Counted from the stretch's first letter, positions 13,250-52,315 are shown. The stretch is 63,812 nucleotides of DNA from Candidatus Limnocylindrales bacterium (GCA_035533415.1 DATLTU010000014.1:1-63812), one strand, 5' to 3'. Numbers and translations: made by a program. Notes: generated from the letters alone by a model not told the origin.

Positions 13250-14107
13250 CTACGATGCTTTCCAGGGCAGGACCAGCACGTTCGAGTCCGCATATCGGAC
13301 GACTCGCTCGGTGGTAGTGCCCAAGGTCGTAAATTCGAAAAATGGCCGGTGCTCGGCACCCAAAACGATCAGATCGACGTCCCGCTCCCGAGCGAGTAAA
13401 ACCACTTGCTCGGCCGCATTTCCCCGGCGGACAACTTCCACCAGATCGCAGTGAGCGCGCATCTCCTCAGGCACCCACTGGCAGAGTCGCTCATGAGTTC
13501 GTTGAAGATCATCGGTCTCCTGTTCCACAGCGTGCATGAGCAAGAGCTTCGCCTTGAAGGCGCTGGCTACGCTGGCCGACAATTCGAGGCCGCGAGAGGC
13601 CAATTTCGTGAAACTGACTGGGCAGAGCACGCTCGAGATTTTCGGCGTCTGCTGATTTGCGCCTGCCTTGACAACCAACGTCGGAATCGCCGTTTCCCTC
13701 ACAACGTTCTCGGCGACGGAGCCCAGCCGCAGCCGCGCCATGCCGCTGCGGCCGTGGCTCCCCATGACAATTAGTTCTGGAGCGTGCTCGGAAGCATGCT
13801 CGAGGATCGCCGCCACGGGATAACCTTCCACCACGGTCGTTGCATACGAAGCCTTCGCGCCAAGCGCTTCGCGAGCTATTCGGCCCAGTTCGTCACGCAG
13901 GGCTGCCAAATGCTCCCGATTCTCTGCGACAAGGGTCTGTATCTGTGCGGCCGTGAAATAGGGCGGCCATTCCTGCCAATCAGCGTGAAGGATTTCCAGT
14001 TTCGCGCCGTAGGTTTCAGCGAACAGTCCAGCCCAGCGGATTACGGCGGGCGTTGCCGGGCTGAGGTCCACTGCACATAGAATACGGCGCGGTGCAAAAA
14101 GTGACAT
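13250..14107 (-). CDS. Tandem universal stress protein (2x UspA domain)
   Basis: 285 aa. Motifs: 'ILCAVDLS', 'MGSHGRSGMARLRLGSVAENV' (G-x2-G-x9-GS ATP motif). The second domain has 'LLMHAV...LGAEHRPFFEFTTLGTTTERV'. Confidence 0.85.
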   Translation of the reverse strand: MSLFAPRRILCAVDLSPATPAVIRWAGLFAETYGAKLEILHADWQEWPPYFTAAQIQTLVAENREHLAALRDELGRIAREALGAKASYATTVVEGYPVAAILEHASEHAPELIVMGSHGRSGMARLRLGSVAENVVRETAIPTLVVKAGANQQTPKISSVLCPVSFTKLASRGLELSASVASAFKAKLLLMHAVEQETDDLQRTHERLCQWVPEEMRAHCDLVEVVRRGNAAEQVVLLARERDVDLIVLGAEHRPFFEFTTLGTTTERVVRYADSNVLVLPWKAS

Positions 14108-15286: not shown

Positions 15287-16375
15287 ATGGCCAAGGCGCA
15301 AAGCACTCCCCGGCTTTCTTTCTTGGACCGATTTCTGACGCTATGGATTTTCGCGGCGATGGTCGGGGGCGTCGCGGCGGGCTACCTGGCGCCGGGAATC
15401 GTCCCCTTTCTGAACCGCTTCAACGTCGGGACCACCTCTATCCCGATTGCGATCGGACTCATCCTGATGATGTATCCGCCGCTCGCCAAGGTGAAGTACG
15501 AAGAACTGGGACGCGTGTTCAGTCACCGTAAGGTGCTGGCCTTATCGCTGATTCAGAATTGGGTCATCGGCCCGGTGCTCATGTTCGCGCTGGCAATTCT
15601 TTTTCTCCGAGACAAGCCGGAGTACATGACGGGACTGATATTGATAGGCCTCGCGCGGTGCATTGCCATGGTGATCGTCTGGAATGACCTGGCCCGGGGC
15701 GATCGTGAGTACGCCGCGGGCCTCGTGGCGCTAAACTCGATTTTTCAAGTTCTGTTTTTCTCCGTCTATGCGTACTTCTTCCTCGCCGTGTTGCCGCGAT
15801 GGTTAGGGATGACGGCAATCCGCGTGAACATCTCGATTCGCGACATCGCAGGGAGCGTTTTCATTTATCTTGGCATTCCGTTCCTCGCAGGTTTTCTAAC
15901 CCGGTTCGTGCTCTTTCGCGTGAAGGGCAAGCAGTGGTATCAGACCCGCTTCATCCCAAAAATCAGCCCGATTACCCTGATCGCACTGCTTTTTACCATC
16001 GTGGTGATGTTCTCGCTCAAGGGACAAATGATCGTTCGCTTGCCGCTCGACGTCATTCGAATCGCCATCCCGCTGACCATTTACTTCGTCGTGATGTTTT
16101 TTGTTTCTTTCTGGATCAGCGCGCGCGTGGGTGCAACCTACGCGGAATCCGCGACGCTTTCTTTTACTGCCGCGTCGAACAACTTTGAACTGGCGATCGC
16201 CGTGGCCATCGCGACCTTCGGAATTAATAGCGGGGCGGCCTTCGCTGCCGTGATTGGACCGCTCGTGGAGGTGCCCGTCCTGATCTCTCTGGTTAACGTC
16301 GCCCTGTGGATCAATAAGCACTACTTCGGCGGCCGATTTGAGACGGTGACCGTTTGTCCTAAGCCCGATGCTTGA
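15287..16375 (+). CDS. acr3: ACR3-family arsenite efflux transporter
   Basis: 362 aa. The N-terminus '[24 protein letters not shown]', '[19 protein letters not shown]' and 10 TM segments are characteristic of ACR3/ArsB (BART superfamily). Confidence 0.85.
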
Positions 16376-16557
16376 TGGGGACGGCACTCTGCCCACCCGA
16401 TTTTGGTGACACCGATGGAGCGATGAGCGAGGTCGCGGTACGAAATGTTTGGATTGTGCATGGAATGGCTCTGCCTCCCAAGATCGTCGCCGTTTCCGGT
16501 GCAACCGCAAATGGCCGGGGCCATTTGCGGTCAAAGACGCTTAGACCCCATGTAATT

Positions 16558-16573
16558 TGTGACCTGCGTCACA
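16558..16573. promoter_or_regulatory. Perfect CRP/FNR-type palindrome TGTGA-CCTGCG-TCACA
   Basis: Read directly. It is centred about 111 nt upstream of the ATG at 16677. Confidence 0.55.
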
Positions 16574-16676
16574 TGGTTTAGTGATCCGTTACCTTGCTGG
16601 CCGTACCTCATTCATTCAAAATGTCTAGCAGTATGACAAACATGATAAATTGTTATCGATAAGGGAGGTTATCATC

Positions 16677-17438
16677 ATGATGCAAAAGCGAAAGATACGA
16701 GGAGGACCAGCCGCCTTAGCTGCGGTGCTGGCCGCCTTTTCTGCGATTGTCTGGTTTGCGCCGCCCGTGGTGCATGCGGCGTCACCCCAAGCAGGATCCG
16801 TAGCGGGATATACGGTGCAGCAGGCTGCGGGCGGTACAATTTCCGGGAAAATTCTCTATAGCGGGAAGCCCGTGCGGCCGAAGAAAGTTACCGTGACGCA
16901 AGATAGAGGAACCTGCGGAAACATGAAGGAAATCTACCCTGTGCAAGTTGAGCAGGGCGGCGTAGCCAATGCAGTCGTCTGGCTTGACGACGCGACGCAC
17001 GGGAAAGCCTTCGCGTTCCCCGCGCCGGTCATTGATCAGAAGGGCTGCATGTTCATGCCGGACATCCTGCTGATGAAGCCCGGTGAGTTGAAGGTCTTGA
17101 ACAGCGACAAGGTCGCGCACAACATCCATGTCTATGCGAAGTCCAACCGCGGCTTCAATCAGGTCATGCCTCCGGGATCTGCTCCGCTGGAAATCCCGCT
17201 GTACCGCCCAGACACCGTGATCGTTCGCTGCGACGTTCATACCTGGATGCAGGGTAACGTCATCGTGGCGAAGAACCCGTACTACGTGCTGAGCGGGAGC
17301 GGCGGCAGCTTCACTCTCACCGACGTGCCTCCCGGCACGTACCATCTGAAGGTGTGGCAGAGCGCTATCGGCACACAGGAAAAGACCGTCACGGTACAAG
17401 CCGGTAAGACAGCAAGTGTAAATTTCACGCTCAAGTAA
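16677..17438 (+). CDS. Secreted cupredoxin (type-1 copper-like) domain nested in a CarboxypepD_reg-like fold, paralog 1
   Basis: RBS AAGGGAGG lies 8 nt upstream, and there is a signal peptide. 'MFMPDILLMKPGELKVLNSDKVAHNIHV' parallels the plastocyanin 'F.P....v..G..v.f.N.....HN' pattern. 'RCDVHTWMQG' is a C-x2-H-x2-M copper loop (amicyanin-like). The C-terminal 'GSFTLTDVPPGTYHLKVW...VTVQAGKTASVNFTL' is CarboxypepD_reg-like. Confidence 0.75.
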   Translation: MMQKRKIRGGPAALAAVLAAFSAIVWFAPPVVHAASPQAGSVAGYTVQQAAGGTISGKILYSGKPVRPKKVTVTQDRGTCGNMKEIYPVQVEQGGVANAVVWLDDATHGKAFAFPAPVIDQKGCMFMPDILLMKPGELKVLNSDKVAHNIHVYAKSNRGFNQVMPPGSAPLEIPLYRPDTVIVRCDVHTWMQGNVIVAKNPYYVLSGSGGSFTLTDVPPGTYHLKVWQSAIGTQEKTVTVQAGKTASVNFTLK

Positions 17439-17490
17439 CCCTTCCGGTGCAAGAACGGAAGAACCAATCGTTCGGATCGAGGCCGTCACA

Positions 17491-18861
17491 ATGAATCGGT
17501 GGAATAAAAAGGTTGACTGGGTCTACCTCGTGCTGTTCACGGGCACGGCTGCGTTTTTTGTGCTGATTTTTCCTGCTCACAAAGCGCAAGCCGTGCCCAG
17601 TTTTGCCCGCCAGACGGGCCTGGCTTGCAGCTCTTGCCACACGAATCCTCCGGAGCTCACGCCGCTCGGCCGGACGTTCAAACTGAATGGCTACTCGATG
17701 ACCGGAATTAAAGTCATCACCTCGCCACCGGAAAAAGAAAAAGCCGGCCTGACCCTTCTCTCGAATCTTCCGCTTGCGGTTTTGTTCGAGGTTTCGAACA
17801 CGGGAACGAATCGTCCGCAGCCGGGCACGCAAAACTGGAATTTTTCTCTTCCTCAGGATGTTTCCCTGTTTCTCGCGGGTGCCTATGCGACCCACTTGGG
17901 TGGCTTCGTGCAGGCCACCTATCATTCGCAAAACGATCATTTCAGCTGGGACAATACCGACATTCGCTACGCCAGGAACCGCTTGGTCAAAGGCAAAACT
18001 CTCGTCTACGGAATTGACTTGAATAACAATCCTACCGTCGAGGACCTGTGGAACGACACGCCCGCCTGGGGTTTCCCGTGGATCGCATCCGCATCCACGA
18101 CGACGCCCGCGGCTGTGCCCATCATCGACGGCCCACTCGGCCAGGATGTCGCTGGCATCGGCGGCTACGCCATGTGGAATGACCACCTCTACGGCGCGGC
18201 TACGATTTATCGCTCGTCCCATTTGGGACAGCCGCTGCCGAATCCCGGCACGAATTTCGATTTCAACATTCAGGGCGCGGCGCCGTACTGGCGCGCCGCC
18301 TGGCAGCAAACCATGGGCAACAGTTATTTGGAGTTCGGAACCTACGGCATGCACATGCGATCCACGCCGGGGGTCGTCATCGGGCCGGAAAATACGTATA
18401 CCGATTTTGCCCTGGATTCGCAATTCGAGCGTGTTCTTCCGAAAATCCACGACAACCTAATCAGTTTGCACGGGACCTACATCCGCGAAAACTCGAATTT
18501 GAATGCAGCCTTCGATTCGAACGGCGCGAGTTTCATTCCGCACCATTTGAATGCGTTTCAGGTGAACGCCGTGTACCATTTCGGGTATCGCTACGCTCCC
18601 GCGTTCGGATATTTCGTCACTACGGGAAACGCCGATCCGCTGTTATACGCGCCCGCGCCGCTGACGGGCAGCGCGAACGGCAGCCCGAATAGCAAGGGTT
18701 ACATCTTGAATTTCACCTACTGGCCGGTGCAGAACGTGCGTCTGGCGATGCAGTACACCGGCTATACGCAGTTCAATGGCGCGGGCACAAACTATGACGG
18801 CTCAGGGCGCAACGCCGGCGATAATAGCTCGCTGTATCTTTATTTGGGTTTGATCTTTTAG
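17491..18861 (+). CDS. Fused monoheme cytochrome c - outer-membrane beta-barrel (Cyc2-like architecture)
   Basis: 456 aa with a signal peptide ending 'AHKAQA'. A single CSSCH lies 13 residues into the mature chain ('VPSFARQTGLACSSCHT'). The remaining ~400 aa are Gly/Tyr/Asn/Thr-rich with alternating hydrophobicity. The C-terminus 'SLYLYLGLIF' has the terminal Phe typical of OMPs. Confidence 0.65.
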   Translation: MNRWNKKVDWVYLVLFTGTAAFFVLIFPAHKAQAVPSFARQTGLACSSCHTNPPELTPLGRTFKLNGYSMTGIKVITSPPEKEKAGLTLLSNLPLAVLFEVSNTGTNRPQPGTQNWNFSLPQDVSLFLAGAYATHLGGFVQATYHSQNDHFSWDNTDIRYARNRLVKGKTLVYGIDLNNNPTVEDLWNDTPAWGFPWIASASTTTPAAVPIIDGPLGQDVAGIGGYAMWNDHLYGAATIYRSSHLGQPLPNPGTNFDFNIQGAAPYWRAAWQQTMGNSYLEFGTYGMHMRSTPGVVIGPENTYTDFALDSQFERVLPKIHDNLISLHGTYIRENSNLNAAFDSNGASFIPHHLNAFQVNAVYHFGYRYAPAFGYFVTTGNADPLLYAPAPLTGSANGSPNSKGYILNFTYWPVQNVRLAMQYTGYTQFNGAGTNYDGSGRNAGDNSSLYLYLGLIF

Positions 18862-18968
18862 ATTCCCGTTTGAATTCATCGGGTGCCGTGATCTTCAAAA
18901 TCCAAACCCACGGCGAGCCCTCGGATCGAACGCTCGGGCCTGGGATTTGAGAAAGGCGGCTTGCGGAA

Positions 18969-19748
18969 ATGATGCCAAAACACGGAGAAATCAAAATGCG
19001 GGCGCGCGCGGTGGCTTTTGATCTGGCAATCTTGGGAGTTGCGGCGGCCCTGTCCGTAGGTACCGCAATGGCAGCTCATCGTCGAGCCTCGGCTGCCGAT
19101 TCACCTGCCACGGGCCAGATCACGGGCAAAATCTACTTCAAGGGAGTCAAGCCGAAGCTGGCGCGGATCAATATGGGCAAGGATCCCGTATGCGTGTCGG
19201 AGCATTCGGGAACCGTGTACGCGCAGGACGGCGCGGTGAACAGCGACGGAACCCTCCCCAACGCGTTCGTCTACATCAAGCAGGGCAGCGTAAATCTGGC
19301 GCGGCCCGCACCGCGCAACTCGGTGGATCTAACGCAAAAAGGTTGCATGTACGAGCCCCACGTTCTCGGCATCATGGTGGGCCAGCCGCTTCAGGTTCTT
19401 ACCCTGGATCCCACGACTCATAACATCCATGTAGTCGCAAAAATCAATCGTGAATGGAATGTCACGCAGCAGCCGGGTTCACCCTCCGCCATTCGCCGGT
19501 TCACGCATCCGGAGGTCATGATTCCGGTGCATTGCAACGAACATCCGTGGATGAAGGCGTACATCGGAGTGGTCGATAATCCCTTCTACGCAGTCACCGG
19601 CGGCGGCGGAAGTTTTGCCCTCAAGGATGTGCCGCCGGGCGACTACACCTTGGCGGTGTGGACCGCAACCTTCGGAACGCAGGAACAGAAGGTCGTCGTG
19701 CGGCCCGGCGAAATAGCAACCGTCAGCTTCACGTTTGTGAGCCGCTAA
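18969..19748 (+). CDS. Secreted cupredoxin / CarboxypepD_reg fusion, paralog 2
   Basis: 259 aa. Motifs: 'QKGCMYEPHVLGIMVGQPLQVLTLDPTTHNIHV', 'HCNEHPWMKAY' (C-x2-H-x2-M), 'GSFALKDVPPGDYTLAVW'. The start could instead be the ATG at 18996. Confidence 0.75.
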   Translation: MMPKHGEIKMRARAVAFDLAILGVAAALSVGTAMAAHRRASAADSPATGQITGKIYFKGVKPKLARINMGKDPVCVSEHSGTVYAQDGAVNSDGTLPNAFVYIKQGSVNLARPAPRNSVDLTQKGCMYEPHVLGIMVGQPLQVLTLDPTTHNIHVVAKINREWNVTQQPGSPSAIRRFTHPEVMIPVHCNEHPWMKAYIGVVDNPFYAVTGGGGSFALKDVPPGDYTLAVWTATFGTQEQKVVVRPGEIATVSFTFVSR

Positions 19749-19874
19749 CACGCATGAGTGCCAGCTTAATCGCGGGCACATCGCTTGCCCCGCCCATCTG
19801 GTCAATGCCGCGAAGGCGCTAGCCCGATGCTTGGCTCCGCCGTTTCCGGGGCAACCAGCGGCGGCGAGTCAAAT

Positions 19875-22430
19875 ATGAGCATTCGTCAGTACACGAATCG
19901 GCCTTCCGAAGCTGCGATTTCTGACGCGCTTGCTGAGTTGGCGTTAGACCTGCGCTGGTCATTCAATCATTCGGCGGATAAGTTCTGGGAGCAACTCGAC
20001 CCTGAACTCTGGGATCTCAGCCATAACCCTTGGATCGTCTTGCAGACCGTGTCGCAGGAAAAGCTTCAAAGTGCTGCCGCTGTCCCGGGTTTCCAAAAAC
20101 TATTGGAAGATCTTCGTCGGGAAAGACGGGCGGCGAAGGAGTCTCCTGCCTGGTTTCAAAAGATGCATCCTGATTCACCTCTCAAAACAGTTGCGTACTT
20201 CTCAATGGAGTTTATGTTGAGTGAGGCGCTGCCGATTTATTCCGGCGGCTTGGGGAACGTCGCTGGCGACCAGCTTAAGACCGCAAGCAATCTGGGCGTT
20301 CCGGTCATCGGTCTGGGTCTGCTCTACCAACAAGGCTACTTTCGGCAGGAAATCGACGCTCAAGGGCAGCAGCAGGCTCTTTATCCGTTCAACGATCCCG
20401 GACAACTGCCGATCACACCGCTGCGTGAACCGAATGGCGAATGGCTGCGTTTCCCGATCTCCTTTCTCGGTTCCCGGCTGTGGATTCGTGTCTGGCAGGT
20501 GCAAATTGGCCGTGCAACGCTATATCTTCTGGACACGAACGATCCCGCAAATACACCCGCGCACCGCGGCATTACCAGCGAACTTTATGGAGGCGGCCCG
20601 GAGTTGCGCCTCAAGCAGGAGCAAGTCCTCGGCATCGGAGGCTGGCGCTTGCTTCGGACCATCGGATTGCAACCTGAGGTCTGCCACCTGAATGAGGGCC
20701 ATGCTGCTTTCGCAGTGCTGGAGCGCGCACGTAGTTTCATGGCCGATAACAAGCAGCCGTTCGATCCAGCCCTCGCGATCACGCGCGCCGGGAACCTCTT
20801 TACCACACACACTCCTGTCGAGGCGGGATTTGATCGTTTTGCTCCTGAACTAATGGAAAAGTACTTTAAGAAGTATGCAGAAGAAGAATTGTTGATTCCG
20901 TTCCCGGACCTGCTTGCGCTCGGGCGGCGGGACCGTAATGATCCGTCGGAGCCGTTTAATATGGCGTATCTGGCGGTTCGTGGTAGCGGCGCCATCAACG
21001 GTGTCAGCCGGCTGCACGGTGAGGTCAGCCGCCGAATCTTTCAGGTGCTGTTTCCGCGATGGCCGGAATTTGAAGTCCCAGTGACGCATGTCACAAACGG
21101 CGTACACACGCCCACGTGGGATTCCGCCGCCGCCGATCGCCTCTGGGAGGCTGCCTGCGGAAAAGAGCGCTGGCGCGGAATTACTGCGGGACTGGAGCAG
21201 AGCCTTCGATGTGTCAGTGATTCCAACTTATGGCAACTGCGCACGAATGCCCGCAAGTCTCTCGTTGGATACGTTCGAAAACGTCACATCCGCCAGTTAG
21301 CAGACCGGGGCGCTTCCCCTGAGGATCTCGCGCTCGCCGCGCAGATACTCGATGCGAATGTCTTGACGCTTGGCTTTGCGCGCCGGTTCGCATCTTACAA
21401 GCGTCCCAATCTGCTTCTCCATGATTCGCAACGCCTCATTCAGATTTTAACGAATCGAGAACGTCCCGTCCAACTTGTTCTGGCTGGGAAGGCGCATCCG
21501 CAAGACGCGAACGGCCAAGACCTGATTCGCGAGTGGATCAATTTCGTCCGTCGCCAGGACGTGCGCCCGCGCGCGGTCTTCCTGAGTGACTATGATGTAT
21601 TGATGGCGGAACATCTCGTTCAAGGCATCGACCTCTGGATTAACACCCCGCGACGCCCTTGGGAAGCAAGTGGTACCAGCGGCATGAAAGTGCTCGTCAA
21701 CGGCGGGCTGAATCTTTCGGAGCTCGATGGCTGGTGGGCGGAAGCATATTCTCCCGACGTGGGTTGGGCCATTGGCGACGGACAGGAGCATGGTGATGAT
21801 CCGTCCTGGGATGCGGCCGAAGCGGATGCCCTCTATCAACTGCTCGAACAAGAGATCATTCCCGAATTTTATAATCGCAACGAAATGGGAATTCCATCCG
21901 GTTGGGTTGCGCGAATGCGGGAAAGCATGGCTCGGTTGACTCCTGCCTTCTCTTCAAATCGCGTCGTACGTCAATATACGGAAGAGCATTACTTGCCAGC
22001 CGCAAAAATTTATTGCGACCGGGCCGCAAACGGCGGCCGGCTCGGCGCCAGTCTGTTCGATTGGCACGCGGAACTCGCAAAGCACTGGCCAAGTTTACGT
22101 TTCGGTTCTGCTATTGCGGAGCAGCGCGGAGGGCGGCATACCTTTCACGTGCAGGTTTATTTTGATGAACTCGATCCAGAGGCTGTCCAAGTTGAACTCT
22201 ATGCGGAAGGCGAGAGCCACGGGCCGCCGGTTCGGGTGCCAATGAGTAAGGACGGGCGCCTCACCGGCTCCGCAAAGGGCTTCGTTTACACTGTGCAAAT
22301 TCCGGCGACTCGCCCCGTGGCGGACTACACTCCGCGAGCGATTCCCCGCCAAACTGGAGCGTCCGTGCCATTGGAGGCGTCGTTCATTCTCTGGCACGAT
22401 TCACCATCGTGGCGAGAATTCCCACGATAG
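19875..22430 (+). CDS. glgP: Alpha-glucan (glycogen/maltodextrin) phosphorylase, GT35
   Basis: Start trimmed to [10 protein letters not shown]. '[15 protein letters not shown]' is the PLP-lysine motif. The ~850-aa length and '[14 protein letters not shown]' are typical of the alpha-glucan phosphorylase subfamily. Confidence 0.9.
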
Positions 22431-22482
22431 CCGCCCATGTGAGAGCGAGCCGGTGCGATTTTTGAAAAAGGGGGAAATTACA

Positions 22483-24876
22483 ATGCCTTCTCATGATGCA
22501 GGGCAGGTTCACGCGTCCGTCGGCCCGATCCCCGAGGAAGAGCTCCGCAAAATGGACGCCTACTGGCGCGCCGCGAATTATCTTTCCGTCGGACAGATTT
22601 ATCTCCTCGATAACCCCCTGCTCCACGAGCGGCTGAAGATTGAGCACATTAAGCCGCGCCTGCTGGGTCACTGGGGCACGACGCCGGGACTGAACTTCAT
22701 TTATGTGCATTTCAATCGCCTCATCAAAAAACTTGATCTGAACGTCATTTACATCACTGGCCCGGGACACGGCGGTCCTGGTCTCGTCGCGAATGCGTAC
22801 CTCGAAGGCACCTACAGTGAGTTCTATCCGAACATTCCGCAGACTGCGGATGGCATGAAGCATCTATTCAAACAGTTTTCGTTCCCCGGAGGCATTCCGA
22901 GCCACGTCGCACCCGAAACGCCGGGTTCAATTCACGAAGGCGGCGAACTGGGCTATTCCATCGCGCATGCTTACGGCGCCGCATTCGATAATCCCGACCT
23001 GCTGGTTTGCTGCGTGGTCGGCGACGGTGAAGCGGAGACCGGGCCGCTGGCCGCCAGCTGGCACTCCAATAAATTCTTGAACCCGGCTCGCGACGGAGCT
23101 GTTCTTCCCGTTCTCCATTTGAATGGTTACAAAATCGCGAATCCAACCGTGCTCGGGCGCATGAACGATGATGAGTTGTCTCATCTCTTCCGGGGATACG
23201 GTTACAACCCCTACTTCGTCGAAGGGCATGTGCCTGAAGCCATGCATCAACTCATGGCGCGCACGCTCGATACCATTGTCGATGAAATCGGGGCCATTCA
23301 GCGCGGCGCCCGCGATGGGCGTGCGGCCGGCCTCCCTGTCTGGCCCATGATCATTTTGCGAACGCCAAAGGGGTGGACCGGACCGAAAATAGTCGACGGA
23401 AAACCCGTGGAAAACACTTGGCGCGCCCATCAGGTTCCCGTTACGGATCTCGCGTCGCGGCCGGACCATTTGAAAATCTTGGAAGATTGGATGAAGAGCT
23501 ACCGGGCAGAAGAGCTCTTTGACCGGCGGGGCAAATTAGTTCAGGAGCTGGCCGAGCTCGCCCCGAAGGGCGACCGCCGCATGGGGGCAAATCCGCATGC
23601 GAATGGCGGGTTGCTGCTCAAGGACCTCGTGATGCCCGACTTTCGCGAATATGCAGTGACCGTGCCGAAGCCCGGCGGCCAAGTTGCGGAAGCCACACGA
23701 ATTCTCGGCACCTTCCTCCGCGACCTCATGAAACTGAACTCGGATGAGAAGAATTTCCGGGTTTTTGGACCGGACGAAACGGCCTCAAACCGGCTCGAGG
23801 CTCTCTACGAGGCCACTTCCAAAGTCTTTATGGAGCGGATTCTGCCCACCGACGAGAACCTCTCTCTTGAGGGCCGCGTGATGGAAGTGCTCAGCGAGCA
23901 CATGTGCCAGGGATGGCTCGAAGGCTATCTGTTGACCGGCCGTCACGGTTTCTTCTCCTGCTACGAAGCCTTCATTCACATCGTGGACTCGATGTTCAAC
24001 CAGCACGCAAAATGGCTGAAGGTCACGCGCCGGATACCCTGGCGTCGCCCGATTGCCTCGCTAAACTATCTGCTGACCTCGCATGTTTGGCGCCAGGATC
24101 ACAATGGTTTTAGCCACCAGGACCCCGGCTTCATCGACCACGTCATGAACAAGAAAGCGGATGTCGTGCGCGTCTATCTGCCTCCTGATGCGAACACACT
24201 GCTCTCCGTGGCGGATCACTGCCTTCGTAGCCGTAACTACGTCAACGTTATTGTTGCTGGGAAGCAGCCGGCTCTGCAATGGCTCGACATGGAATCTGCG
24301 ATCGAACATTGCACGAACGGACTCGGGATTTGGGAGTGGGCCAGCACGGATGACGGAAGTGAGCCGGATGTCGTGATGGCCTGCGCTGGGGATATTCCCA
24401 CACTGGAAACCTTAGCAGCCGTGGATCTCTTGCGGACCCATTTCCCAGATATCAAGATCCGTCTCGTAAACGTAGTGGATCTGATGACCTTGCAACCTCA
24501 GAGCGAACATCCTCACGGGATTTCCGATCCAGAGTTCGATTCCATGTTCACAGCCGATAAGCCCATCATCTTCGCTTACCATGGCTATCCGTGGCTGATT
24601 CATCGCCTGACGTATCGACGGACGAATCACGATAATCTGCACGTGCGCGGCTATAAGGAAGAAGGCACGACGACAACTCCATTTGACATGGCTGTATTAA
24701 ATGATCTGGACCGCTTCCATCTGGCCGGAGATGTCGTCGACCGCGTGCCGCGTCTGCGGGAAGTCGGGGCGCATTTCAAACAGTTTCTGCGCAACAAGCT
24801 GGTCGAGCATCGGCAATACATTGTCCGATACGGCGACGACATGCCGGAGATCCGCGACTGGAAATGGCCCTACTGA
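22483..24876 (+). CDS. xfp: Phosphoketolase (xylulose-5-P/fructose-6-P)
   Basis: '[17 protein letters not shown]', '[13 protein letters not shown]' and '[10 protein letters not shown]' are phosphoketolase signatures. About 797 aa. Confidence 0.95.
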
Positions 24877-24879
24877 ACG

Positions 24880-26085
24880 ATGAAAATACTCATTCTCAAT
24901 TCCGGTTCCAGCAGCCAGAAGAGCAGTTTATACGACATCGAGGGCCCTCTTCCGGCGCGTCCGCCAAGTCCGGTATGGGAAGCCAGGATCGAATGGGATG
25001 GTCGCACGGCGGAGATTCAGGTGAAGGCCCAAAAAGGCGCCACGTTTCATAGCCGCGTAAAAATTGATTCCCGGCACCAGGCGCTAGAGCAGATGTTTCG
25101 CTCGCTCTGGGAAAGCGACGTTCGCGCGGTCGAGAAGCCCTCGGAAATCCACGTCGTAGGTCATCGGATTGTTCACGGCGGTCGCCGATTCGAAGAGCCG
25201 GTCATCATTACCGCCGAAGTGAAACGCGCCATAGCAAGCGCTTCTGCATTTGCGCCTCTTCACAATCGAGTTGAACTCGAAGGTATCGCGATCATCGAAG
25301 AACTTCTGGGGACGGTTCCTCAGGTCGCGGTCTTCGATACCGCCTTTCATCATAGTCTTCCCTTCGCGGCGGCTGTGTATCCCGGACCCTATGAATGGTT
25401 GGCGCAGGGGATTCGGCGGTACGGCTTTCATGGCATCAACCATCAATACTGTGCCGAGCGCGCGGCGCAACTGCTAGGAAAGCCCCTTACTTCTCTCAGG
25501 CTTGTTTCGTGTCATCTTGGAAATGGTTGTTCGCTTGCAGCCATTGACGGTGGCCGCAGTGTCGACACGACTATGGGGTTCACTCCTCTGGATGGATTGA
25601 TGATGGGCACGCGCTCGGGATCGGTCGATCCGAGCATTCTGACTTACCTGATGCGAGAAAAACGAATCGACGCAGGCCGAGTCGATGAGATTCTCAATAA
25701 CGAGTCCGGCCTCCTCGGCATTTCGGGAGTTTCGAGCGACATGCGCAAGATCTTGGAGGCCATGAACTCGGGGAATGACAGGGCAGAACTGGCCTTTGCT
25801 ATCTTCGTCCATCGTCTCCGGTCCGGCATCGGGTCCATGGTTGCCGCACTCGGCGGTCTGGATGCTCTGATTTTCACGGCGGGAATTGGCGAGAATGCAG
25901 CCGCTGTTCGAGAAGCCGCCTGCGCGCGCTTCAGCCATCTTGGCCTAACGCTGGATGCGGTCAAAAACAGTCAGTCGCCGGTTGATCAAGACATCGCCGA
26001 GCGCGATTCATCCGTGCGCGTGCTGGTCATCCATGCCGAGGAGGATTGGGCTATCGCTCGGGAATGTTGGACGATGACTCAGTAA
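24880..26085 (+). CDS. ackA: Acetate kinase
   Basis: 401 aa. Motifs: 'ILILNSGSSSQK', 'GHRIVHGG', 'RYGFHGINHQY', 'FTAGIGEN'. It begins 4 nt after the xfp stop. Confidence 0.95.
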   Translation: MKILILNSGSSSQKSSLYDIEGPLPARPPSPVWEARIEWDGRTAEIQVKAQKGATFHSRVKIDSRHQALEQMFRSLWESDVRAVEKPSEIHVVGHRIVHGGRRFEEPVIITAEVKRAIASASAFAPLHNRVELEGIAIIEELLGTVPQVAVFDTAFHHSLPFAAAVYPGPYEWLAQGIRRYGFHGINHQYCAERAAQLLGKPLTSLRLVSCHLGNGCSLAAIDGGRSVDTTMGFTPLDGLMMGTRSGSVDPSILTYLMREKRIDAGRVDEILNNESGLLGISGVSSDMRKILEAMNSGNDRAELAFAIFVHRLRSGIGSMVAALGGLDALIFTAGIGENAAAVREAACARFSHLGLTLDAVKNSQSPVDQDIAERDSSVRVLVIHAEEDWAIARECWTMTQ

Positions 26086-26271
26086 GGTTGTCCCTTGGGT
26101 GAGCGGCGAAAAATTCCATTGTTCTTCATCTACCGAAATCGAATCACCGCTCCAGCAAAAGCGTCGAAAATCTCGCTCTTGCGATAAATATTCTGAGCGC
26201 GGATTCCGCCCATAAAATCGCCGTTATGCGTACCGCCTACGCGATACAATCGACTGGCTAGAGGAGGCGAG

Positions 26272-27159
26272 ATGCGCGCGGAAGTCGAGCAGGCGATTCA
26301 AGCGCTCCAGGACAACCAGCCGGGCGCCACCGAGCAAGCTCTCGCTCTCCTGCAGCAGACTGTATTTTCTTTCAGCATGAAAGTCTGTGGCCAGCGCGAG
26401 GATGCGGAAGACACCGCGCAAGAGACATTGCTAAGAGCCATCTCGCAGCTAGCGAGTTTTAGCAGCTCGAAAGCACTGGCCGTCTGGCTCTACAAGGTGG
26501 CGAAGACTCAGTGCCTGATGAGCCGCCGCAAAAGCAAATTCGCTCCTCCGCAGCATCTCTCGCTCGAACTCTTGATGCCAAATCCCCAGGAATTGGAACG
26601 CCTGACGGCCCCCAGTTTTGCAATCCCCGATAAGACCTTGCTGCGTAAGGAACAGACGGAGCAACTGCACAAGGCTATCTTGAAACTTCCGCCCGACTTC
26701 CGGCTCATTCTTGTTTTGCACGATATGGAGGAGCTCTCGACCAAGGAGGTCGCCAGCGTCACAGGATTGCGTGAAGGTACCGTGCGCGTGCGCCTGCACC
26801 GCGCACGAGTGTTTCTACGGAACGTTCTGGCCGGAGCAGGACACTCGACCCACCGAACCACGAAATCGCGTTCCCACCAGCGCAGTCATTGCAAGCAGTT
26901 GTTTCGCGAGCTCTCGGATTATCTCGACGGCGCCCTCGATCCCTCGCGATGCGACGCGCTGGAGCGGCACCTCCCCGATTGCCAGCCCTGCAAGATATTC
27001 CTCAGCAGCCTTGAGCACACGGTCAAGGAATTGCGACGCCGGCAACTCCCTGGACTCAAGGACCGGCCATCTCGCAAGATGCGAACGGCCCTCTTTGCGG
27101 AGTACCGGCGCGCGATTCAAGCATCAGCCCACGCCCCACGGCCTGGAACACCTCGCTAG
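26272..27159 (+). CDS. ECF sigma-70 factor with a C-terminal fused ZAS (zinc anti-sigma) domain
   Basis: RBS GAGGAGG. Region 2 is 'AEDTAQETLLRAI' and region 4 is 'LSTKEVASVTGLREGTVRVRLHRARVFL'. The C-terminal extension 'CKQLFRELSDYLDGALDPSRCDALERHLPDCQPC' is C-x25-H-x3-C-x2-C. No TM segment follows. Confidence 0.8.
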   Translation: MRAEVEQAIQALQDNQPGATEQALALLQQTVFSFSMKVCGQREDAEDTAQETLLRAISQLASFSSSKALAVWLYKVAKTQCLMSRRKSKFAPPQHLSLELLMPNPQELERLTAPSFAIPDKTLLRKEQTEQLHKAILKLPPDFRLILVLHDMEELSTKEVASVTGLREGTVRVRLHRARVFLRNVLAGAGHSTHRTTKSRSHQRSHCKQLFRELSDYLDGALDPSRCDALERHLPDCQPCKIFLSSLEHTVKELRRRQLPGLKDRPSRKMRTALFAEYRRAIQASAHAPRPGTPR

Positions 27160-28605: not shown

Positions 28606-29538
28606 ATGAGTACAGCGACCAACGCAGCAGCAGTCAAGGTCACGCCGGCCAGTCGCATAGATGCCGACCATCAAGTTTCGCTCTCCAACATTCTTGTCGC
28701 CACGGACTTCTCTCCCTCATCGGAAACAGCCCTCGGTTACGCGCTCGCGATTGCGCGGCGTTACGAATCGCACGTCTATGTCGCGCACGTCATCCTCCCT
28801 AGCGCCTATCAGTTCGGTGCTCCCGAAGCGATTGAGCCAACATACGATTTGGTGCGCCGGCACGCCGAAGAAGAGATGGCCACGCTGCTCGTCTCAGGCC
28901 GGCTGCGGAGCGTCGTCCATGAAGTTTTGCTGGAAGAGGGCCTGCTCTGGCCCACGCTCGCCAGTATGATTCAGGACCACTCGATTCAGCTCGTGGTCAT
29001 CGGCACCCATGGCCGCACTGGGGCTAGGAAGTTGCTCCTTGGCTCAGCCGCGGAAGAAATTTTCCGCCTGGCCGATGTCCCGGTGATGACCGTTGGCCCG
29101 CAAGTGAAAACCGAGCCGCCGCAAGAAGTCAAACTCAAACGCATCCTCTACGCGACCGACTTCACCGCGAAAGGCGAACGCGCCGCCGCCTATGCTCTCT
29201 CCCTCGCGCAGGAACACCAAGCGGAGTTGACGCTCCTGCACGTCATCGAAAACGGGGACGGCGTATCGTCCAAGAACATCTCGGCGCTGCGCGCGGTGTT
29301 CCTGAAGCGTCTCGATGCGATTGTGCCCCCGGAAGCAAGGTCGTGGTGCGATCCCGCGTGCGTCGTGACCGTGGGGAATTCTGCCGATGAGATTCTTGCC
29401 GTGGCCCGCGCACGCGCGTCGGACTTGATCGTTCTCGGCGTGCGCCATGCTACGGGGTTCGCGGGTCACATTCTCGCGAGCCGCGCCTACAAGGTTGTTT
29501 GCCAGTCGGAGTGCCCCGTGCTCACGGTCCGTGGCTAG
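28606..29538 (+). CDS. Tandem universal stress protein (2x UspA domain)
   Basis: 310 aa. Motifs: 'ILVATDFS', 'IGTHGRTGARKLLLGSAAEEI', second domain 'ILYATDFT...LGVRHATGFAGHILASRAYKV'. Confidence 0.85.
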   Translation: MSTATNAAAVKVTPASRIDADHQVSLSNILVATDFSPSSETALGYALAIARRYESHVYVAHVILPSAYQFGAPEAIEPTYDLVRRHAEEEMATLLVSGRLRSVVHEVLLEEGLLWPTLASMIQDHSIQLVVIGTHGRTGARKLLLGSAAEEIFRLADVPVMTVGPQVKTEPPQEVKLKRILYATDFTAKGERAAAYALSLAQEHQAELTLLHVIENGDGVSSKNISALRAVFLKRLDAIVPPEARSWCDPACVVTVGNSADEILAVARARASDLIVLGVRHATGFAGHILASRAYKVVCQSECPVLTVRG

Positions 29539-29634: not shown

Positions 29635-30150
29635 GTGAAAGAACAACACATAGTCCGCCAATCCGTCATGGGTCCCACGCCCGTGAAGCTGCTGAAATTT
29701 GAAGAACTCTCCGCCCAAATCGGGGAAATCCGCTGCGCGACAGAACGCCATGCCGTTGCATCCAGTGACCGCGCACGCCGATGGAATCTCGAGGATTGGA
29801 TTCAGGCCGAATTCAAATTCCTGCATCCCGCGCCTTGTGAAGTGACAGCATCGAACGGCGCGATCACCGTTCGCGCCGAGGTTTCCGACTTCAGCGCGGA
29901 AGACCTCAAGGTTAGTGTCGAGCCTTCGCGCGTGGCCATCGTCGGAAAGAAACAACCTGCGAAGGAGCGCGGAGACGAAGCAAAACGCTCAGCCGAATTC
30001 CGCCCCCGCCGCCTGCTCCGCGTTCTTGTCCTCCCGGCGGAAGTAGATCCGGCGAAAGCACAGGCAGTGGTCAAGAACGGCATTCTTGAGGTCATCATGC
30101 CAAAGGTTGCCGCGACCCCGAAAGTGGAGCGTAAATCCAGGGCTGCATAA
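29635..30150 (+). CDS. DUF2934-like N-terminus fused to an Hsp20/alpha-crystallin domain
   Basis: GTG start with RBS GGGAGGAAAG. 'ARRWNLEDWIQAE' matches the DUF2934 'DWL.AE' motif. 'ITVRAEVSDFSAEDLKVSVEPSRVAIVGKK...VVKNGILEVIMPK' is an ACD. Confidence 0.65.
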   Translation: MKEQHIVRQSVMGPTPVKLLKFEELSAQIGEIRCATERHAVASSDRARRWNLEDWIQAEFKFLHPAPCEVTASNGAITVRAEVSDFSAEDLKVSVEPSRVAIVGKKQPAKERGDEAKRSAEFRPRRLLRVLVLPAEVDPAKAQAVVKNGILEVIMPKVAATPKVERKSRAA

Positions 30151-30325
30151 GACTGCCGCATGAAACACCGAGCGAAAGCCCCGCAGCCACACGGGCAAAC
30201 TACCGAACTCTGAATAAGTTTCGGGTGCTATTGATCAAGCAAGCAAGAAGGACAGAGAGACAGTCGGCAGAATCAAGTTGGGTATTTCCGCGCGATCTGC
30301 CGGCATTCCTTCGCGGAGGGTGCCT

Positions 30326-31117
30326 ATGAAATCAAAAAAAGTAATCCCTATCACCAGACGCTGGTGGCCGAGGATGCTCGTGTTTGGATTTGGCATGTTC
30401 CTGGTTGCTGGTTTTCTCTTTTTCGGCGCTCATGCAGCCAGAGAGCAATCGGCGCGGGTATCTGCCGCCACCGGTTCCATCGTCGGAACAGTAAAGCTCC
30501 TCGGCCTACCTCCAGCGCCTCAAGTGATCAACATGAGCTTCGACCCCGTTTGCGCGTCGGCCCATAAGAAGCCCGTGTATACGCAGGAAGTGAAACTGGG
30601 GCCGAATGACGCGCTCGAAAATGTCGTTGTGTTCTTGAGTTCAGGACTTCGCAATACTGCATTCGTGCCGCCCTCGCGTCCTGCCGTGCTCGACCAAAGG
30701 GGATGCATGTTCGAACCGCACGTCTTGGCGGTCATGGTCGGCCAAAAACTGGAAATTCTCAATAGCGACAAAACGCCTCACGGCATCCACGTCCTGGCGC
30801 GCAATAACGAGCAATGGAATCAATTTCAACCCGTTGGCGGCCCGCCCATCGTGACAGCTTTTTCCCACCCCGAGGTGGCCGTTCCCGTGATCTGTTCGTG
30901 GCACCCGCTTCACTTTTGGATGAAAGCCTACGTCGCTGTTCTTAGCGACCCGCATTTTCAGGTCACGGGGCGCGACGGCAGTTTTGCCTTGGAGGGCTTG
31001 CGACGGGGGACGTACACGATCGAGGCGTGGCAGGAGAAGTACGGCATCCTAAAGAGGCAAGTTACGGTTCGCCCGGGACAAACTACCACCCTGGATTTTG
31101 TCTTTAAGGCCGACTAG
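30326..31117 (+). CDS. Cupredoxin / CarboxypepD_reg fusion, paralog 3 (variant copper loop)
   Basis: RBS GGAGGG. The N-terminus 'ITRRWWPRMLVFGFGMFLVAGFLFF' is a possible Tat-like signal or anchor. Motifs: 'QRGCMFEPHVLAVMVGQKLEILNSDKTPHGIHV', 'ICSWHPLHFWMKAY' (the loop is extended by PLH), 'GSFALEGLRRGTYTIEAW'. Confidence 0.75.
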   Translation: MKSKKVIPITRRWWPRMLVFGFGMFLVAGFLFFGAHAAREQSARVSAATGSIVGTVKLLGLPPAPQVINMSFDPVCASAHKKPVYTQEVKLGPNDALENVVVFLSSGLRNTAFVPPSRPAVLDQRGCMFEPHVLAVMVGQKLEILNSDKTPHGIHVLARNNEQWNQFQPVGGPPIVTAFSHPEVAVPVICSWHPLHFWMKAYVAVLSDPHFQVTGRDGSFALEGLRRGTYTIEAWQEKYGILKRQVTVRPGQTTTLDFVFKAD

Positions 31118-31267
31118 CTCCTTTGATTCGCCATTACAATGCCCTGCGTGAAATGGCGCGGCTTCCTGTCGCAACGGCTTGAGAGCGAAACGGCAAGCGA
31201 AACTCCCATCCTTCACCCGAACGGAATTGGCGTCCCTGCCGACGCCTTTTCAGAATATGATAGACAT

Positions 31268-31627
31268 TTGAAGAGAGCATCTATCTTTCTGGTGAGTCTT
31301 GTGCTGGCGGCCTTGCTGTCCGCTTGCGGCCGGGATCTCTCCAAGGAATCCGACGCTGAATTGGGTCTAAGTGCCCAGCAAAGCAACGGCCGGCGCATTT
31401 TTCAGCTCTATTGTGCTTCCTGCCACAACGCATATTCTTCCAGTGGTTCGAATGGGCCGGCCATGAAGGGAGTGTTCAAAAGTAAATATCTGCCGAGCGG
31501 CCTGCCCGCCAACGATCGGTTTGTGAAGCAGGCGATCGTGAATGGCCGCGGGATGATGCCCGCGTTTGGCGAGTCCCTCGGCCCGCAACAGGTTGATGAT
31601 CTGATCGCCTATCTGCACAGCCTGTAG
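31268..31627 (+). CDS. Monoheme class-I cytochrome c lipoprotein
   Basis: The TTG at 31268 gives (M)KRASIFLVSLVLAALLSACG (lipobox). It has 'CASCHN' and a distal Met in 'GRGMMPAF'. The track's longer N-terminus has no signal-like logic. Confidence 0.7.
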   Translation: MKRASIFLVSLVLAALLSACGRDLSKESDAELGLSAQQSNGRRIFQLYCASCHNAYSSSGSNGPAMKGVFKSKYLPSGLPANDRFVKQAIVNGRGMMPAFGESLGPQQVDDLIAYLHSL

Positions 31628-31865
31628 AACCGCCGGAAACTTCTCGCCGAAGAGAGAGAATGTCCGCATCGTGATGGAACCGGTTCGTACCAAGGCTTCG
31701 GTCCTGGAGCTACTCCGGCGCGTAGGGATTCATTCGACGGCTCGCCGAGCCTCTGAAAATTTTTTTCGCCGATGAAATGCCCTCATGAATTTCCACAATT
31801 TCTCAGAAATTCCCAATGCATCGCCTTGCAGTTGCGAAATATCCGCCTCGGCCCTTCCGTACTGG

Positions 31866-31881
31866 TGTGATAAGAGTCACG
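31866..31881. promoter_or_regulatory. CRP/FNR-like site TGTGA-TAAGAG-TCACG
   Basis: Read directly, in the 512-bp gap upstream of the decaheme gene. Confidence 0.4.
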
Positions 31882-32006
31882 CCCCTTCGTGACTGCAGTC
31901 ATTGCGGCCGCTGCGCCGATCGTGGAAATTTGTACTGCTTGGCCGAGGAGGGTGGCATTTGGAGGACATTCCGCAGGCGGCGAATTCTGTAAAGGGAATG
32001 CAGAAG

Positions 32007-32022
32007 AGTGACCACGGTCACA
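32007..32022. promoter_or_regulatory. CRP/FNR-like site AGTGA-CCACGG-TCACA
   Basis: Read directly. It is centred about 124 nt upstream of the ATG at 32139. Confidence 0.5.
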
Positions 32023-32138
32023 GTCAAAACATCAGATTTATGTATAAATTTTCGGTCGAAGGAAGTTTGATGTCGCCGACGTCGGGCCCTGATTGATGTT
32101 GAGTCCTTGAAGGCGCTGGAAGTTGCCTAGGAGGATAG

Positions 32139-33095
32139 ATGGCACGCGCTAAGACATTGGTGATTGCCGCTCTCGCCGTTTTTGCCTTCCTGCTCGTACA
32201 TCAAGCGTCCACGCGGGCGCAGGAAAAGCAACCTCCGGAGACCCGCGCATCGGTGGCGAATTCTTCTTCTCCACCAGCCTCGGCTTCGTCCCGGTATGCC
32301 GGTTCGGATGCCTGCAAGGTTTGCCACGCGGACGAATACGCGAGCTGGGAAAAATCGCCTCACTGGAACACCACGCTGAATACGCGGGGCGGCCCATCCA
32401 AGCAGGGCTGCGAAGCGTGTCATGGCGCGGCGGCCAGCCACGTCGCGGATCCCAGCGACACCTCCAAGCTTTTCCTTTTCGAGAAGGCTTCGGCCAAGCA
32501 AATCAACGCACGCTGCTTGGCGTGCCATGCGTCAGGCACGGAGCACATGCACGCGATCAATTCCTTGCATGCTCGGAATGGCGTGTCCTGCACATCGTGT
32601 CACTCGCCGCACCACGCCAAGGAAGCGCGGTTCCTGCTCGTTCAGCGCCAGCCAGAGCTTTGCTATTCCTGCCACTTGCAACAGAGGGCGCAGTTCGCGA
32701 TGCCGTTTCATCACCGCGTGAATGAGGGACTTATACAGTGCACCGATTGCCACAATCCGCACGGCACCGAGCGGCCTCACCAATTGCGCTCGTCGGCCGC
32801 TCAGGATGCGGTCTGTTTTACGTGCCACGCGGACAAACAGGGGCCGTTCGTCTTTGAGCATGAAGTTGTGAAAGTGGAAGGCTGCGAGGCATGTCACGAT
32901 CCGCACGGATCTCCCAACCCGCACCTGCTGAAAGTGAGCAACGTCAACCTCCTCTGCCTGCAGTGCCACACGACGTCGTTCGCGAACGCGCCCGGCGCGC
33001 CTTCTTTCCACAACCAGTCCACTCAATTTCAGGCGTGTACGCTTTGCCATACGCAAATTCACGGCTCGAACTTTGACAAGGATTTTTTCAAATAG
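32139..33095 (+). CDS. Periplasmic decaheme c-type cytochrome, MtrA/DmsE/MtoA/PioA family
   Basis: 318 aa, RBS TAGGAGG, signal peptide. There are exactly ten CxxCH motifs: CKVCH, CEACH, CLACH, CTSCH, CYSCH, CTDCH, CFTCH, CEACH, CLQCH, CTLCH. The C-terminal 'CTLCHTQIHGSNFD' is as in the DmsE family. Confidence 0.85.
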   Translation: MARAKTLVIAALAVFAFLLVHQASTRAQEKQPPETRASVANSSSPPASASSRYAGSDACKVCHADEYASWEKSPHWNTTLNTRGGPSKQGCEACHGAAASHVADPSDTSKLFLFEKASAKQINARCLACHASGTEHMHAINSLHARNGVSCTSCHSPHHAKEARFLLVQRQPELCYSCHLQQRAQFAMPFHHRVNEGLIQCTDCHNPHGTERPHQLRSSAAQDAVCFTCHADKQGPFVFEHEVVKVEGCEACHDPHGSPNPHLLKVSNVNLLCLQCHTTSFANAPGAPSFHNQSTQFQACTLCHTQIHGSNFDKDFFK

Positions 33096-35552: not shown

Positions 35553-35620
35553 AGCGAGGCCGAAATTCGATGGCGCGGTGTGGGATCATTCATAATCGGA
35601 AGCTCAGCAGAGAAAGGCGG

Positions 35621-35968: not shown

Positions 35969-36036
35969 ATCTCCAACGATTCCTTCGCGCCAGATCATTG
36001 CCGCATTCATTCCTGGCGGCGGCATGAGGAGGGTTC

Positions 36037-45162: not shown

Positions 45163-45174
45163 GACCGCGAACCC

Positions 45175-52305: not shown

Positions 52306-52315
52306 GGGAGTTTGC

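Follow-up and report, generated by a model that had tools for sequence, protein, structure and literature searches.

A Cyc2-like cytochrome-porin gene flanked by amicyanin-like cupredoxin fusions: a candidate electron conduit with putative FNR-like control in Acidobacteriota

We analysed a stretch of 63,812 nucleotides (nt) of DNA filed under Candidatus Limnocylindrales bacterium (GCA_035533415.1, DATLTU010000014.1:1-63812; hereafter the window). The DNA belongs to a soil acidobacterium of the order Acidoferrales. It carries a compact group of three genes, here called A, B and C, through which these very common inhabitants of soil can probably pass electrons to or from extracellular iron. Gene B belongs to the Cyc2 family of fused cytochrome-porins, and the genes on either side of it encode paralogous secreted proteins with the ligand set of a type-1 copper protein. 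An earlier interpretation made from the DNA alone (the sequence-only reading) had described three co-directional genes with gaps of 52 nt (A-B) and 107 nt (B-C), and the coordinates of the open reading frames (ORFs), all on the + strand, bear this out. The features of the locus are as follows.

16558-16573, no strand assigned: CRP/FNR-family operator TGTGACCTGCGTCACA, a perfect palindrome, 119 nt before the ATG of gene A
16677-17438, + strand: gene A, secreted cupredoxin fusion of 253 residues; the ORF is also open from a TTG at 16650
17491-18861, + strand: gene B, Cyc2-family fused monohaem cytochrome-porin of 456 residues
17590-17616, + strand: Cyc2 motif AVPSFARQT, gene B residues A34-T42
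17626-17640, + strand: haem motif CSSCH, gene B residues 46-50
17650-17658, + strand: PEL motif, gene B residues 54-56
18969-19748, + strand: gene C, 259 residues, paralogue of gene A

The ATG at 16677 is the likelier start of gene A than the TTG at 16650, because a GGGAGG box lies 8 nt before it and a database protein (P0121, NCBI, 253 residues) is identical to the product from this codon. The sequence-only reading had begun the module at 16558, a position that is non-coding and proves to be the first base of the operator palindrome. A scan of 16300-26400 for sigma-70 promoters and terminators found no more sites than in shuffled sequence, and the RNA structure of the B-C intergenic region is unremarkable (z-score 0.66).

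Cyc2 proteins are defined by a signal peptide, a single CXXCH, the motif AXPXFAR[Q/K][T/Y] just upstream of it, which has been termed unique to Cyc2, and a PXL four residues downstream; further screens are a length of at least 365 residues and a 16-strand porin domain (Keffer 2021, PMC8406198). The gene B product matches every published sequence feature exactly, reading A34-VPSFARQT-GLA-CSSCH-TNP-PEL56. By inspection of the translation, it opens with a Sec-type leader, in which a hydrophobic core follows a basic n-region and AQA precedes V35. Its only CXXCH is C46-S-S-C-H50, the PXL starts at the fourth residue past the histidine (H50-T-N-P-P54-E-L56), its 456 residues exceed the length screen, and the C-terminus reads ...LYLYLGLIF. 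The leader, the single CSSCH and the ...GLIF ending had all been picked out by the sequence-only reading, which counted the haem motif 13 residues into the mature protein; we place it at about the 12th. In an alignment of 36 homologues, A34, S37, R40-Q41-T42, C46, C49-H50 and E55-L56 are invariant, A39 and P54 are nearly so, and V35, P36 and F38 vary (F or Y at 38). Among the genomes we fetched, all 81 acidobacterial homologues have exactly one CXXCH and follow the pattern [PTA]S[FY][AS]RQT-x3-CXXCH-x3-P[EQ]L. Only 14 of the 81 pass the strict published motif, owing to F to Y or A to S changes, so a strict PXFAR filter would drop most of the acidobacterial relatives.

The AlphaFold2 (AF2) model of the gene B product has 16 long strands following a poorly modelled N-terminal domain, with a predicted local distance difference test score (pLDDT) of 56.7 and a predicted template modelling score (pTM) of 0.60. 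The best Foldseek matches to this model are the 16-strand porins PorB, OmpF and OprO, together with AlgE, at E values of approximately 1e-8; the target-normalized template modelling (TM) scores against PorB, OmpF and OprO are 0.44-0.58. Matches of this type were also the templates reported for Cyc2 and Cyc572 (Keffer 2021, PMC8406198, and a published similarity network). The barrel expected from the sequence has a counterpart in the 16 strands and porin matches of the model. Six histidines in the barrel part are invariant (H150, H232, H288, H327, H351 and H363) and may bind metal or mark an electron path. We considered a porin of the MtrB/PioB type for gene B and ruled it out, given the fusion to a monohaem domain and the 16 strands of the model. 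The exact family motif, single haem site, length and predicted porin fold support the assignment of gene B as a Cyc2-family fused monohaem cytochrome-porin, as first proposed, with haem loading and activity predicted.

The gene B family is large: clustering at 90% identity gives over 5,377 clusters, and at 50% identity (E up to 1e-3) there are 4,582. Full-length homologues with 30-39% identity were found by tblastn in Ralstonia, Caballeronia, Paraburkholderia, Acidiphilium, Methylocystis and Ideonella, among others, and Burkholderia and Ralstonia are listed among the genera with Cyc2 homologues (Keffer 2021, PMC8406198). In the published similarity network, Leptospirillum Cyc572 adjoins a dense cluster of Acidobacteria and Nitrospira homologues. 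One Terriglobales genome has two Cyc2-like genes in tandem (L030:652-4236), with 58% and 54% identity to B. Close homologues (56-67% identity) also occur in bins that carry the labels Dormibacterota, Verrucomicrobiia and 'Patescibacteria group' (L053, L055; P0066), probably because of mis-binning, the alternative being a recent transfer. In acidophiles, full-length Cyc2-like homologues (35% identity to B) followed by a c-type cytochrome gene are present on conjugative or mobilisable plasmids; the copies on Acidiphilium cryptum JF-5 pACRY03 (L088) and on an A. ferrooxidans plasmid (CP084173.1) have identical scores, which suggests that they are the same mobile gene.

The proteins encoded by genes A and C share 38% identity over 212 residues (E 5e-42). 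Gene A comprises an N-terminal beta segment, a type-1 copper cupredoxin domain and a C-terminal CarboxypepD_reg-like sandwich. The ligand strings are H148-N-I-H151 ... C185-D-V-H188-T-W-M191 in A and H151-N-I-H154 ... C189-N-E-H192-P-W-M195 in C, in agreement with the paralogy and the HN.H ... C-x2-H-x2-M set read from the DNA at the outset. Across an alignment of 39 family members, H148, C185, H188 and M191 never vary and N149 and H151 hardly do, and C-x2-H-x(2 or 6)-M is present in all 58 cupredoxin-family ORFs of related loci. C80 and C124 (codons 16914-16916 and 17046-17048 in gene A) are also invariant among the 39 and may form a disulfide.

The AF2 model of gene A has a pLDDT of 90.3, and Foldseek matches its central domain to amicyanin, plastocyanin, a Bacillus Cupredoxin_1 protein and a NirK domain (E 2e-5 to 1e-3, target-normalized TM 0.64-0.73). 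When a profile of the cupredoxin family was compared with PDB sequences, amicyanin was found by sequence alone (E 2e-5 to 1e-4), and its His53, Cys92, His95 and Met98 align to H148, C185, H188 and M191 of gene A. Rusticyanin was not among the 43 PDB sequence matches (E up to 10), nor among the 50 Foldseek matches listed. The view that these cupredoxins are unrelated to rusticyanin is upheld, their closest solved relatives being the amicyanins. Pfam recognizes only PF13620 (CarboxypepD_reg) in gene A, at residues 209-262 of the TTG-start ORF; many homologues bear the Joint Genome Institute label 'plastocyanin'. The copper domain may be inserted into the CarboxypepD_reg sandwich, since an N-terminal string, GGTISGKI, resembles the first strand of that fold and the Pfam match spans only positions 28-82 of the profile. 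The confident model, the structural and profile matches and the invariant ligands support the earlier identification of the flanking proteins as cupredoxins, here amicyanin-like type-1 copper proteins that are predicted to bind copper.

In the collection scanned, at least 590 species-level genomes contain a relative of gene B; the best 80 of them, nearly all Acidobacteriota, served as our neighbourhood sample. In 47 of the 80, the gene immediately downstream of the Cyc2-like one is a member of the cupredoxin family (35 full length and 12 without the N-terminal segment). Cupredoxin genes are present on both sides in eight or nine, all of them closest relatives with at least 66% identity to B. 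The three-gene synteny anticipated by the sequence-only reading therefore holds in part: what is conserved at its core is the pair B-C, present at about 60% of loci, while the full A-B-C order is confined to the nearest clade. Roughly ten loci without a cupredoxin have instead a downstream gene for a class I monohaem cytochrome c of 106-125 residues, usually followed by a Rieske protein, and at two others multihaem cytochromes occupy the downstream position. A c-type cytochrome is annotated directly downstream at five of six proteobacterial loci inspected, and in Caballeronia a gene for a high-potential iron-sulfur protein lies upstream of the Cyc2-like gene. From this alternation of cupredoxins and c-type cytochromes we conclude that the position beside cyc2 is a slot for a small periplasmic one-electron carrier, which in Acidobacteriota is usually a copper protein. 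Clustering of neighbouring genes at the 80 loci further identified cytochrome b (25 loci), Rieske protein (20), a GltD-like flavoprotein (16), a CRP/FNR-family regulator (11), monohaem cytochrome c (10), an eight-haem cytochrome (9), COX1 (8) and COX2 (7). At one locus (L005), a cytochrome b/c complex is encoded upstream and genes resembling alternative complex III (ACIII) downstream. Functional coupling between the Cyc2-like protein and the cupredoxin is thus supported by comparative genomics.

A metagenome scan with the cupredoxin family profile returned 80 loci. Three of these have the arrangement seen in the window. In 16, a gene of a second Cyc2 subfamily comes first, with a dihaem cytochrome c gene after it and the cupredoxin fusion third; nine of the 16 extend into COX2 and COX1, and about nine further loci are partial, ended by contig limits. 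An example is L139:2506-8335, with the order cyc2 (FARKY type, 2506-4008), dihaem c, cupredoxin fusion, COX2, COX1; the approximately 25 other loci of this kind include L110, L120, L143, L149, L155, L157, L158, L163, L166, L168 and L169. Members of the second subfamily are 450-550 residues long, carry A[IL]PAFARKY-x3-CXXCH-x3-PxL and end in FDF or FAF. Their named homologues come from Ca. Acidoferrum or Acidiferrum, which fall in the order of the window's closest relatives. When the two Cyc2 types are compared by hhalign, only the cytochrome domain connects them (probability 98.8%, E 7e-17), consistent with a published remark that the porin part of Cyc2 is poorly conserved. No COX1, COX2 or dihaem c match was found in the window. 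At 28 of the 48 metagenome cupredoxin loci with upstream room there is no Cyc2-like gene. The fusion is also found directly after an octahaem cytochrome c of about 900 residues, or between a dihaem protein of the MauG/cytochrome c peroxidase type and a beta-propeller (L097, L099, L101-L103, L133 and L162; L113 and L134). Since the family adjoins octahaem cytochromes and MauG-like/beta-propeller genes as well, the cupredoxin fusion is a general respiratory shuttle and not specific to iron.

The operator upstream of gene A is one of two perfect TGTGA-N6-TCACA sites in the window, against none expected; with up to one mismatch there are six, against 1.25 expected. The remaining sites are located as follows.

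15036: operator-motif site upstream of an SBF/ACR3-like gene
21080: operator-motif site inside glgP
31866 and 32007: operator-motif sites, one mismatch each, upstream of a decahaem cytochrome gene
40167: operator-motif site beside a pfkB kinase gene

The site is conserved beyond the window. At 38 of 78 related loci (L007-L086) there is at least one within 400 nt upstream of the operon, compared with 0.023 expected per stretch, commonly 95-120 nt from the start codon; ten loci have at least two, the listed pairs being 22 bp apart. In the 11 loci where a regulator gene adjoins the operon, its product has a CRP-like recognition helix, RETV(T/S)R, and four conserved cysteines, three near the N-terminus (C-x2-C-x8-C) and the fourth in the beta-roll, which resembles the placing of the FNR [4Fe-4S] ligands. 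No regulator of the CRP/FNR family is encoded in the window. The sites of the window and its relatives appear to form a regulon, and, judging from these sequence features, the module is probably switched by oxygen supply through an FNR-like regulator. The operator is missing from all 15 cox-linked operons (0/15), so the two Cyc2 systems seem to be regulated differently.

Two further groups of genes in the window bear on how the module might be used, and are listed here.

19875-26085, + strand: glgP-like glucan phosphorylase, phosphoketolase (xfp) and acetate kinase (ack), by Pfam
30278-31117, + strand: third cupredoxin-fusion paralogue, with the variant loop C-S-W-H-PLHF-W-M, heading the second module
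30278-36654, + strand: second envelope electron-transfer module, about 12 kb downstream of A-B-C

No terminator-like site was found in the intergenic regions of the + strand between gene A and ack, and glgP, xfp and ack may be co-transcribed with A-B-C. Genes for xfp and ack lie near the Cyc2-like gene in only one of the 80 genomes, plus locus L003, and those for universal stress proteins in three of the 80. As the linkage of xfp, ack, glgP and the stress proteins is not conserved, any tie to fermentation is local context only. The window as a whole holds a stress/hypoxia set, comprising two tandem-domain universal stress proteins, Hsp20, the glgP-like enzyme, xfp, ack and a pfkB sugar kinase (13250-14107 (-), 28606-29538 (+), 29635-30150 (+), 19875-26085 (+) and 40518-41579 (+)), and this set resembles a dormancy or low-oxygen island.

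The second module encodes the third cupredoxin, a monohaem cytochrome c lipoprotein, a decahaem cytochrome, a protein of 818 residues, a monohaem cytochrome c and a NapC/CymA-like membrane cytochrome. The third cupredoxin is 45% identical to that of the cox-linked operons. The decahaem protein belongs to the DmsE/MtrA family (TIGR03508, 264 bits against a cut-off of 192). The 818-residue protein that follows it ends in ...LQYSF and is matched by no model; it is likely to be a porin of the MtrB/PioB type. Ca. Acidoferrales were named for genes of the MtrA/B/C type and proposed to reduce Fe(III) in acid soils, with no mention of Cyc2 or cupredoxins (Epihov et al. 2021).

Of the systems described previously, the rus operon of Acidithiobacillus ferrooxidans (cyc2-cyc1-orf-coxBACD-rus) is the obvious comparison, as it too links a Cyc2-family cytochrome-porin to a type-1 copper protein. 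Its full logic is reproduced in Ca. Acidoferrum by the order cyc2, dihaem c, cupredoxin, coxB, coxA. The window operon differs in several respects: its cupredoxin is amicyanin-like (C-x2-H-x2-M) with a CarboxypepD_reg-like sandwich and is no homologue of rusticyanin, it has two cupredoxin paralogues but neither a dihaem cytochrome nor oxidase genes (coxBACD), it carries an FNR/CRP-type operator, and its host is a heterotrophic soil acidobacterium rather than an extremely acidophilic autotroph. The proposal of a rus-like analogue built from unrelated cupredoxin fusions nevertheless gains support from the synteny of the carrier slot and from the cox-linked operons of the second Cyc2 subfamily. 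The Cyc2 proteins of neutrophiles (Mariprofundus PV-1 and Gallionellaceae; Cluster 1) and Leptospirillum Cyt572 (Cluster 3) share with B the motif, single haem, size and 16-strand prediction, but their proposed periplasmic partners are c-type cytochromes (Cyc1 and Cyt579), not copper proteins.

Amicyanin, from the mau cluster of Paracoccus, is the closest solved relative of the copper domain and has HN(V/I)H and C-x2-H-x2-M-x-G-x-V in common with it. Identity is only about 20%, however, and the acidobacterial proteins have extra N- and C-terminal beta domains and the conserved Cys80/Cys124. Some relatives of the cupredoxin fusion adjoin MauG-like dihaem proteins and beta-propellers, as in mau clusters, whereas the window offers no methylamine dehydrogenase context. 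The MtrAB, PioAB and MtoAB systems do the same job of moving electrons across the outer membrane, and the window itself has genes for a decahaem cytochrome and a putative porin 12 kb downstream; those are two-protein systems that run ten haems through a 26-strand barrel, whereas gene B encodes a single fused monohaem porin. Cupredoxins have been reported for Tenderia (UetF) and Sideroxydans (Slit_1816-1818) in contexts different from that of the window, and Cyc2 homologues of Acidobacteria are noted in passing in the published similarity network. Our literature search gave no description of an amicyanin-like fusion as a Cyc2 partner, of a rus-like acidobacterial operon or of FNR-type control. 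Nor did it give any pairing of Cyc2 with a cupredoxin fusion in Acidobacteria, in keeping with the initial impression that the arrangement was undescribed.

We think it likely that A-B-C forms an envelope electron conduit, with an FNR-like switch, between extracellular iron and a high-potential respiratory chain. The gene B product would sit in the outer membrane as a 16-strand porin whose N-terminal Cyc2 domain bears one c-type haem. The products of A and C would be periplasmic type-1 copper proteins that dock to it and shuttle electrons between the Cyc2 haem and a Rieske/cytochrome b complex and cytochrome c oxidase, taking the role of Cyc1 and rusticyanin in Acidithiobacillus, or of the small c-type cytochromes beside proteobacterial cyc2. 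An FNR-like member of the CRP family would control transcription through the site at 16558. Iron is the most likely substrate, with a path from Fe2+ to haem, copper and terminal oxidase, although such an electron chain would be intrinsically reversible. All three Cyc2-family proteins that have been tested biochemically oxidize Fe(II) (Keffer 2021, PMC8406198), and cox-linked sister operons exist; for these two reasons we tentatively favour the inward direction, that is, Fe(II) oxidation under low oxygen. The explanation taken as a whole (a conduit, for iron, with inward flow preferred) seems to us evenly poised.

Some observations weigh against this explanation at the level of its parts. The gene B model is only moderately confident (pLDDT 56.7), with its cytochrome domain poorly modelled, and gene B is recognized by neither Pfam nor NCBIfam, nor does it find a match in a sequence search of the PDB. 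The cupredoxin domain has no Pfam match at E up to 1, Copper-bind and Cupredoxin_1 included. About 29 of the 80 relatives have no cupredoxin on either side of the Cyc2-like gene. This last figure could indicate that the cupredoxin genes are mere neighbours of the Cyc2-like gene and functionally unlinked to it, as could the 28 of 48 metagenome cupredoxin loci that lack a Cyc2-like gene. Such pairing nevertheless recurs with two Cyc2 subfamilies, the genes being co-directional and closely spaced, and elsewhere the slot holds other periplasmic one-electron carriers; we regard a chance association as extremely improbable.

As to the direction of flow, the same hardware could run outward when O2 is limiting, from quinol through a Rieske/cytochrome b or ACIII-like complex to the cupredoxins, the Cyc2 haem and Fe(III) or Mn(III/IV), which would let the cell keep respiring during fermentation of stored glycogen. 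The following points weigh against inward flow or in favour of this alternative. There is no terminal oxidase in the window. An FNR-type operator precedes the window operon, and none was found on the 15 cox-linked (aa3) sister operons. The immediate downstream genes are glgP, xfp and ack, with those for universal stress proteins and Hsp20 near, and operator sites with one mismatch precede the decahaem gene of the module 12 kb away, with its DmsE/MtrA-family cytochrome, putative porin and NapC/CymA-like protein. Full-length homologues are carried on plasmids of Acidiphilium cryptum and A. multivorum, both known Fe(III) reducers. Cytochrome b and Rieske proteins are the commonest neighbours, with ACIII-like genes at L005, and by our own estimate the Fe(OH)3/Fe2+ couple lies at approximately +0.4 to +0.55 V at pH 4-5, above typical type-1 copper potentials. 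The potential for Fe(III) reduction is, moreover, what gave Ca. Acidoferrales their name, and they have been proposed to exercise it in acid soils (Epihov et al. 2021). Yet reductase activity is not known for any Cyc2-family protein, the three characterized members all being Fe(II) oxidizers, and in the sister operons it is with cytochrome c oxidase genes that the cupredoxin family is associated. The xfp/ack linkage, at one of 80 genomes, is not conserved, and the oxygen-sensing role of the regulator is inferred solely from the positions of its cysteines. Outward flow is possible, in our judgement, but doubtful. A combined scheme, which we consider unlikely, would give Terriglobia, which rank among the most abundant bacteria of soil, two differently wired conduits, the aa3-linked type for aerobic Fe(II) oxidation and the window type, governed by an FNR-like oxygen sensor, reversed under hypoxia towards Fe(III) or Mn(IV).

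It could also be that the system is redox-active but serves no energy-conserving iron pathway, acting as an envelope sensor of iron or redox state, as a detoxifying ferroxidase, or as a conduit for Mn(II), humic quinones or Cu(I). The host lineage of the window is heterotrophic, and relatives of the cupredoxin beside MauG-like dihaem/beta-propeller or octahaem genes indicate a carrier that is not iron-specific. A sensing role for Cyc2 has been raised in the literature for Sideroxydans, and Cluster 3 and divergent Cyc2 homologues are of uncertain function, in hosts not known as iron oxidizers (Keffer 2021, PMC8406198). The consistent linkage to cytochrome b, Rieske and COX1/2 and the rus-like operons within the same taxonomic order argue instead for respiration, which makes this family of roles improbable.

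No genetic marker for microbial Fe(II) oxidation is in wider use than Cyc2, and its divergent homologues in non-classical hosts have been flagged in the literature as having no known function. Those of Acidobacteriota now become testable, having a dedicated copper carrier, a rus-like operon with an oxidase and a second copy under an FNR-like switch. If the conduit were confirmed, abundant heterotrophs of soil and peat would count as iron cyclers, with a bearing on the retention of carbon and phosphorus by acid soils, and the cupredoxin fusion would be a useful second marker gene alongside cyc2. Were the window type to run in reverse under hypoxia, it would explain how acidophilic heterotrophs such as Acidobacterium and Acidiphilium reduce Fe(III), for which a mechanism has long been missing, and would be the first physiological case of Cyc2 as a reductase with a copper-protein donor.

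Further along the + strand of the window, at 42754-53991, lies a cluster encoding two fatty acyl-CoA reductase-like proteins (NAD_binding_4/Sterile), two AMP-binding enzymes, an enoyl-CoA hydratase, a diacylglycerol kinase-like protein and an acyltransferase; its product may be a wax ester, a fatty alcohol or a storage lipid.

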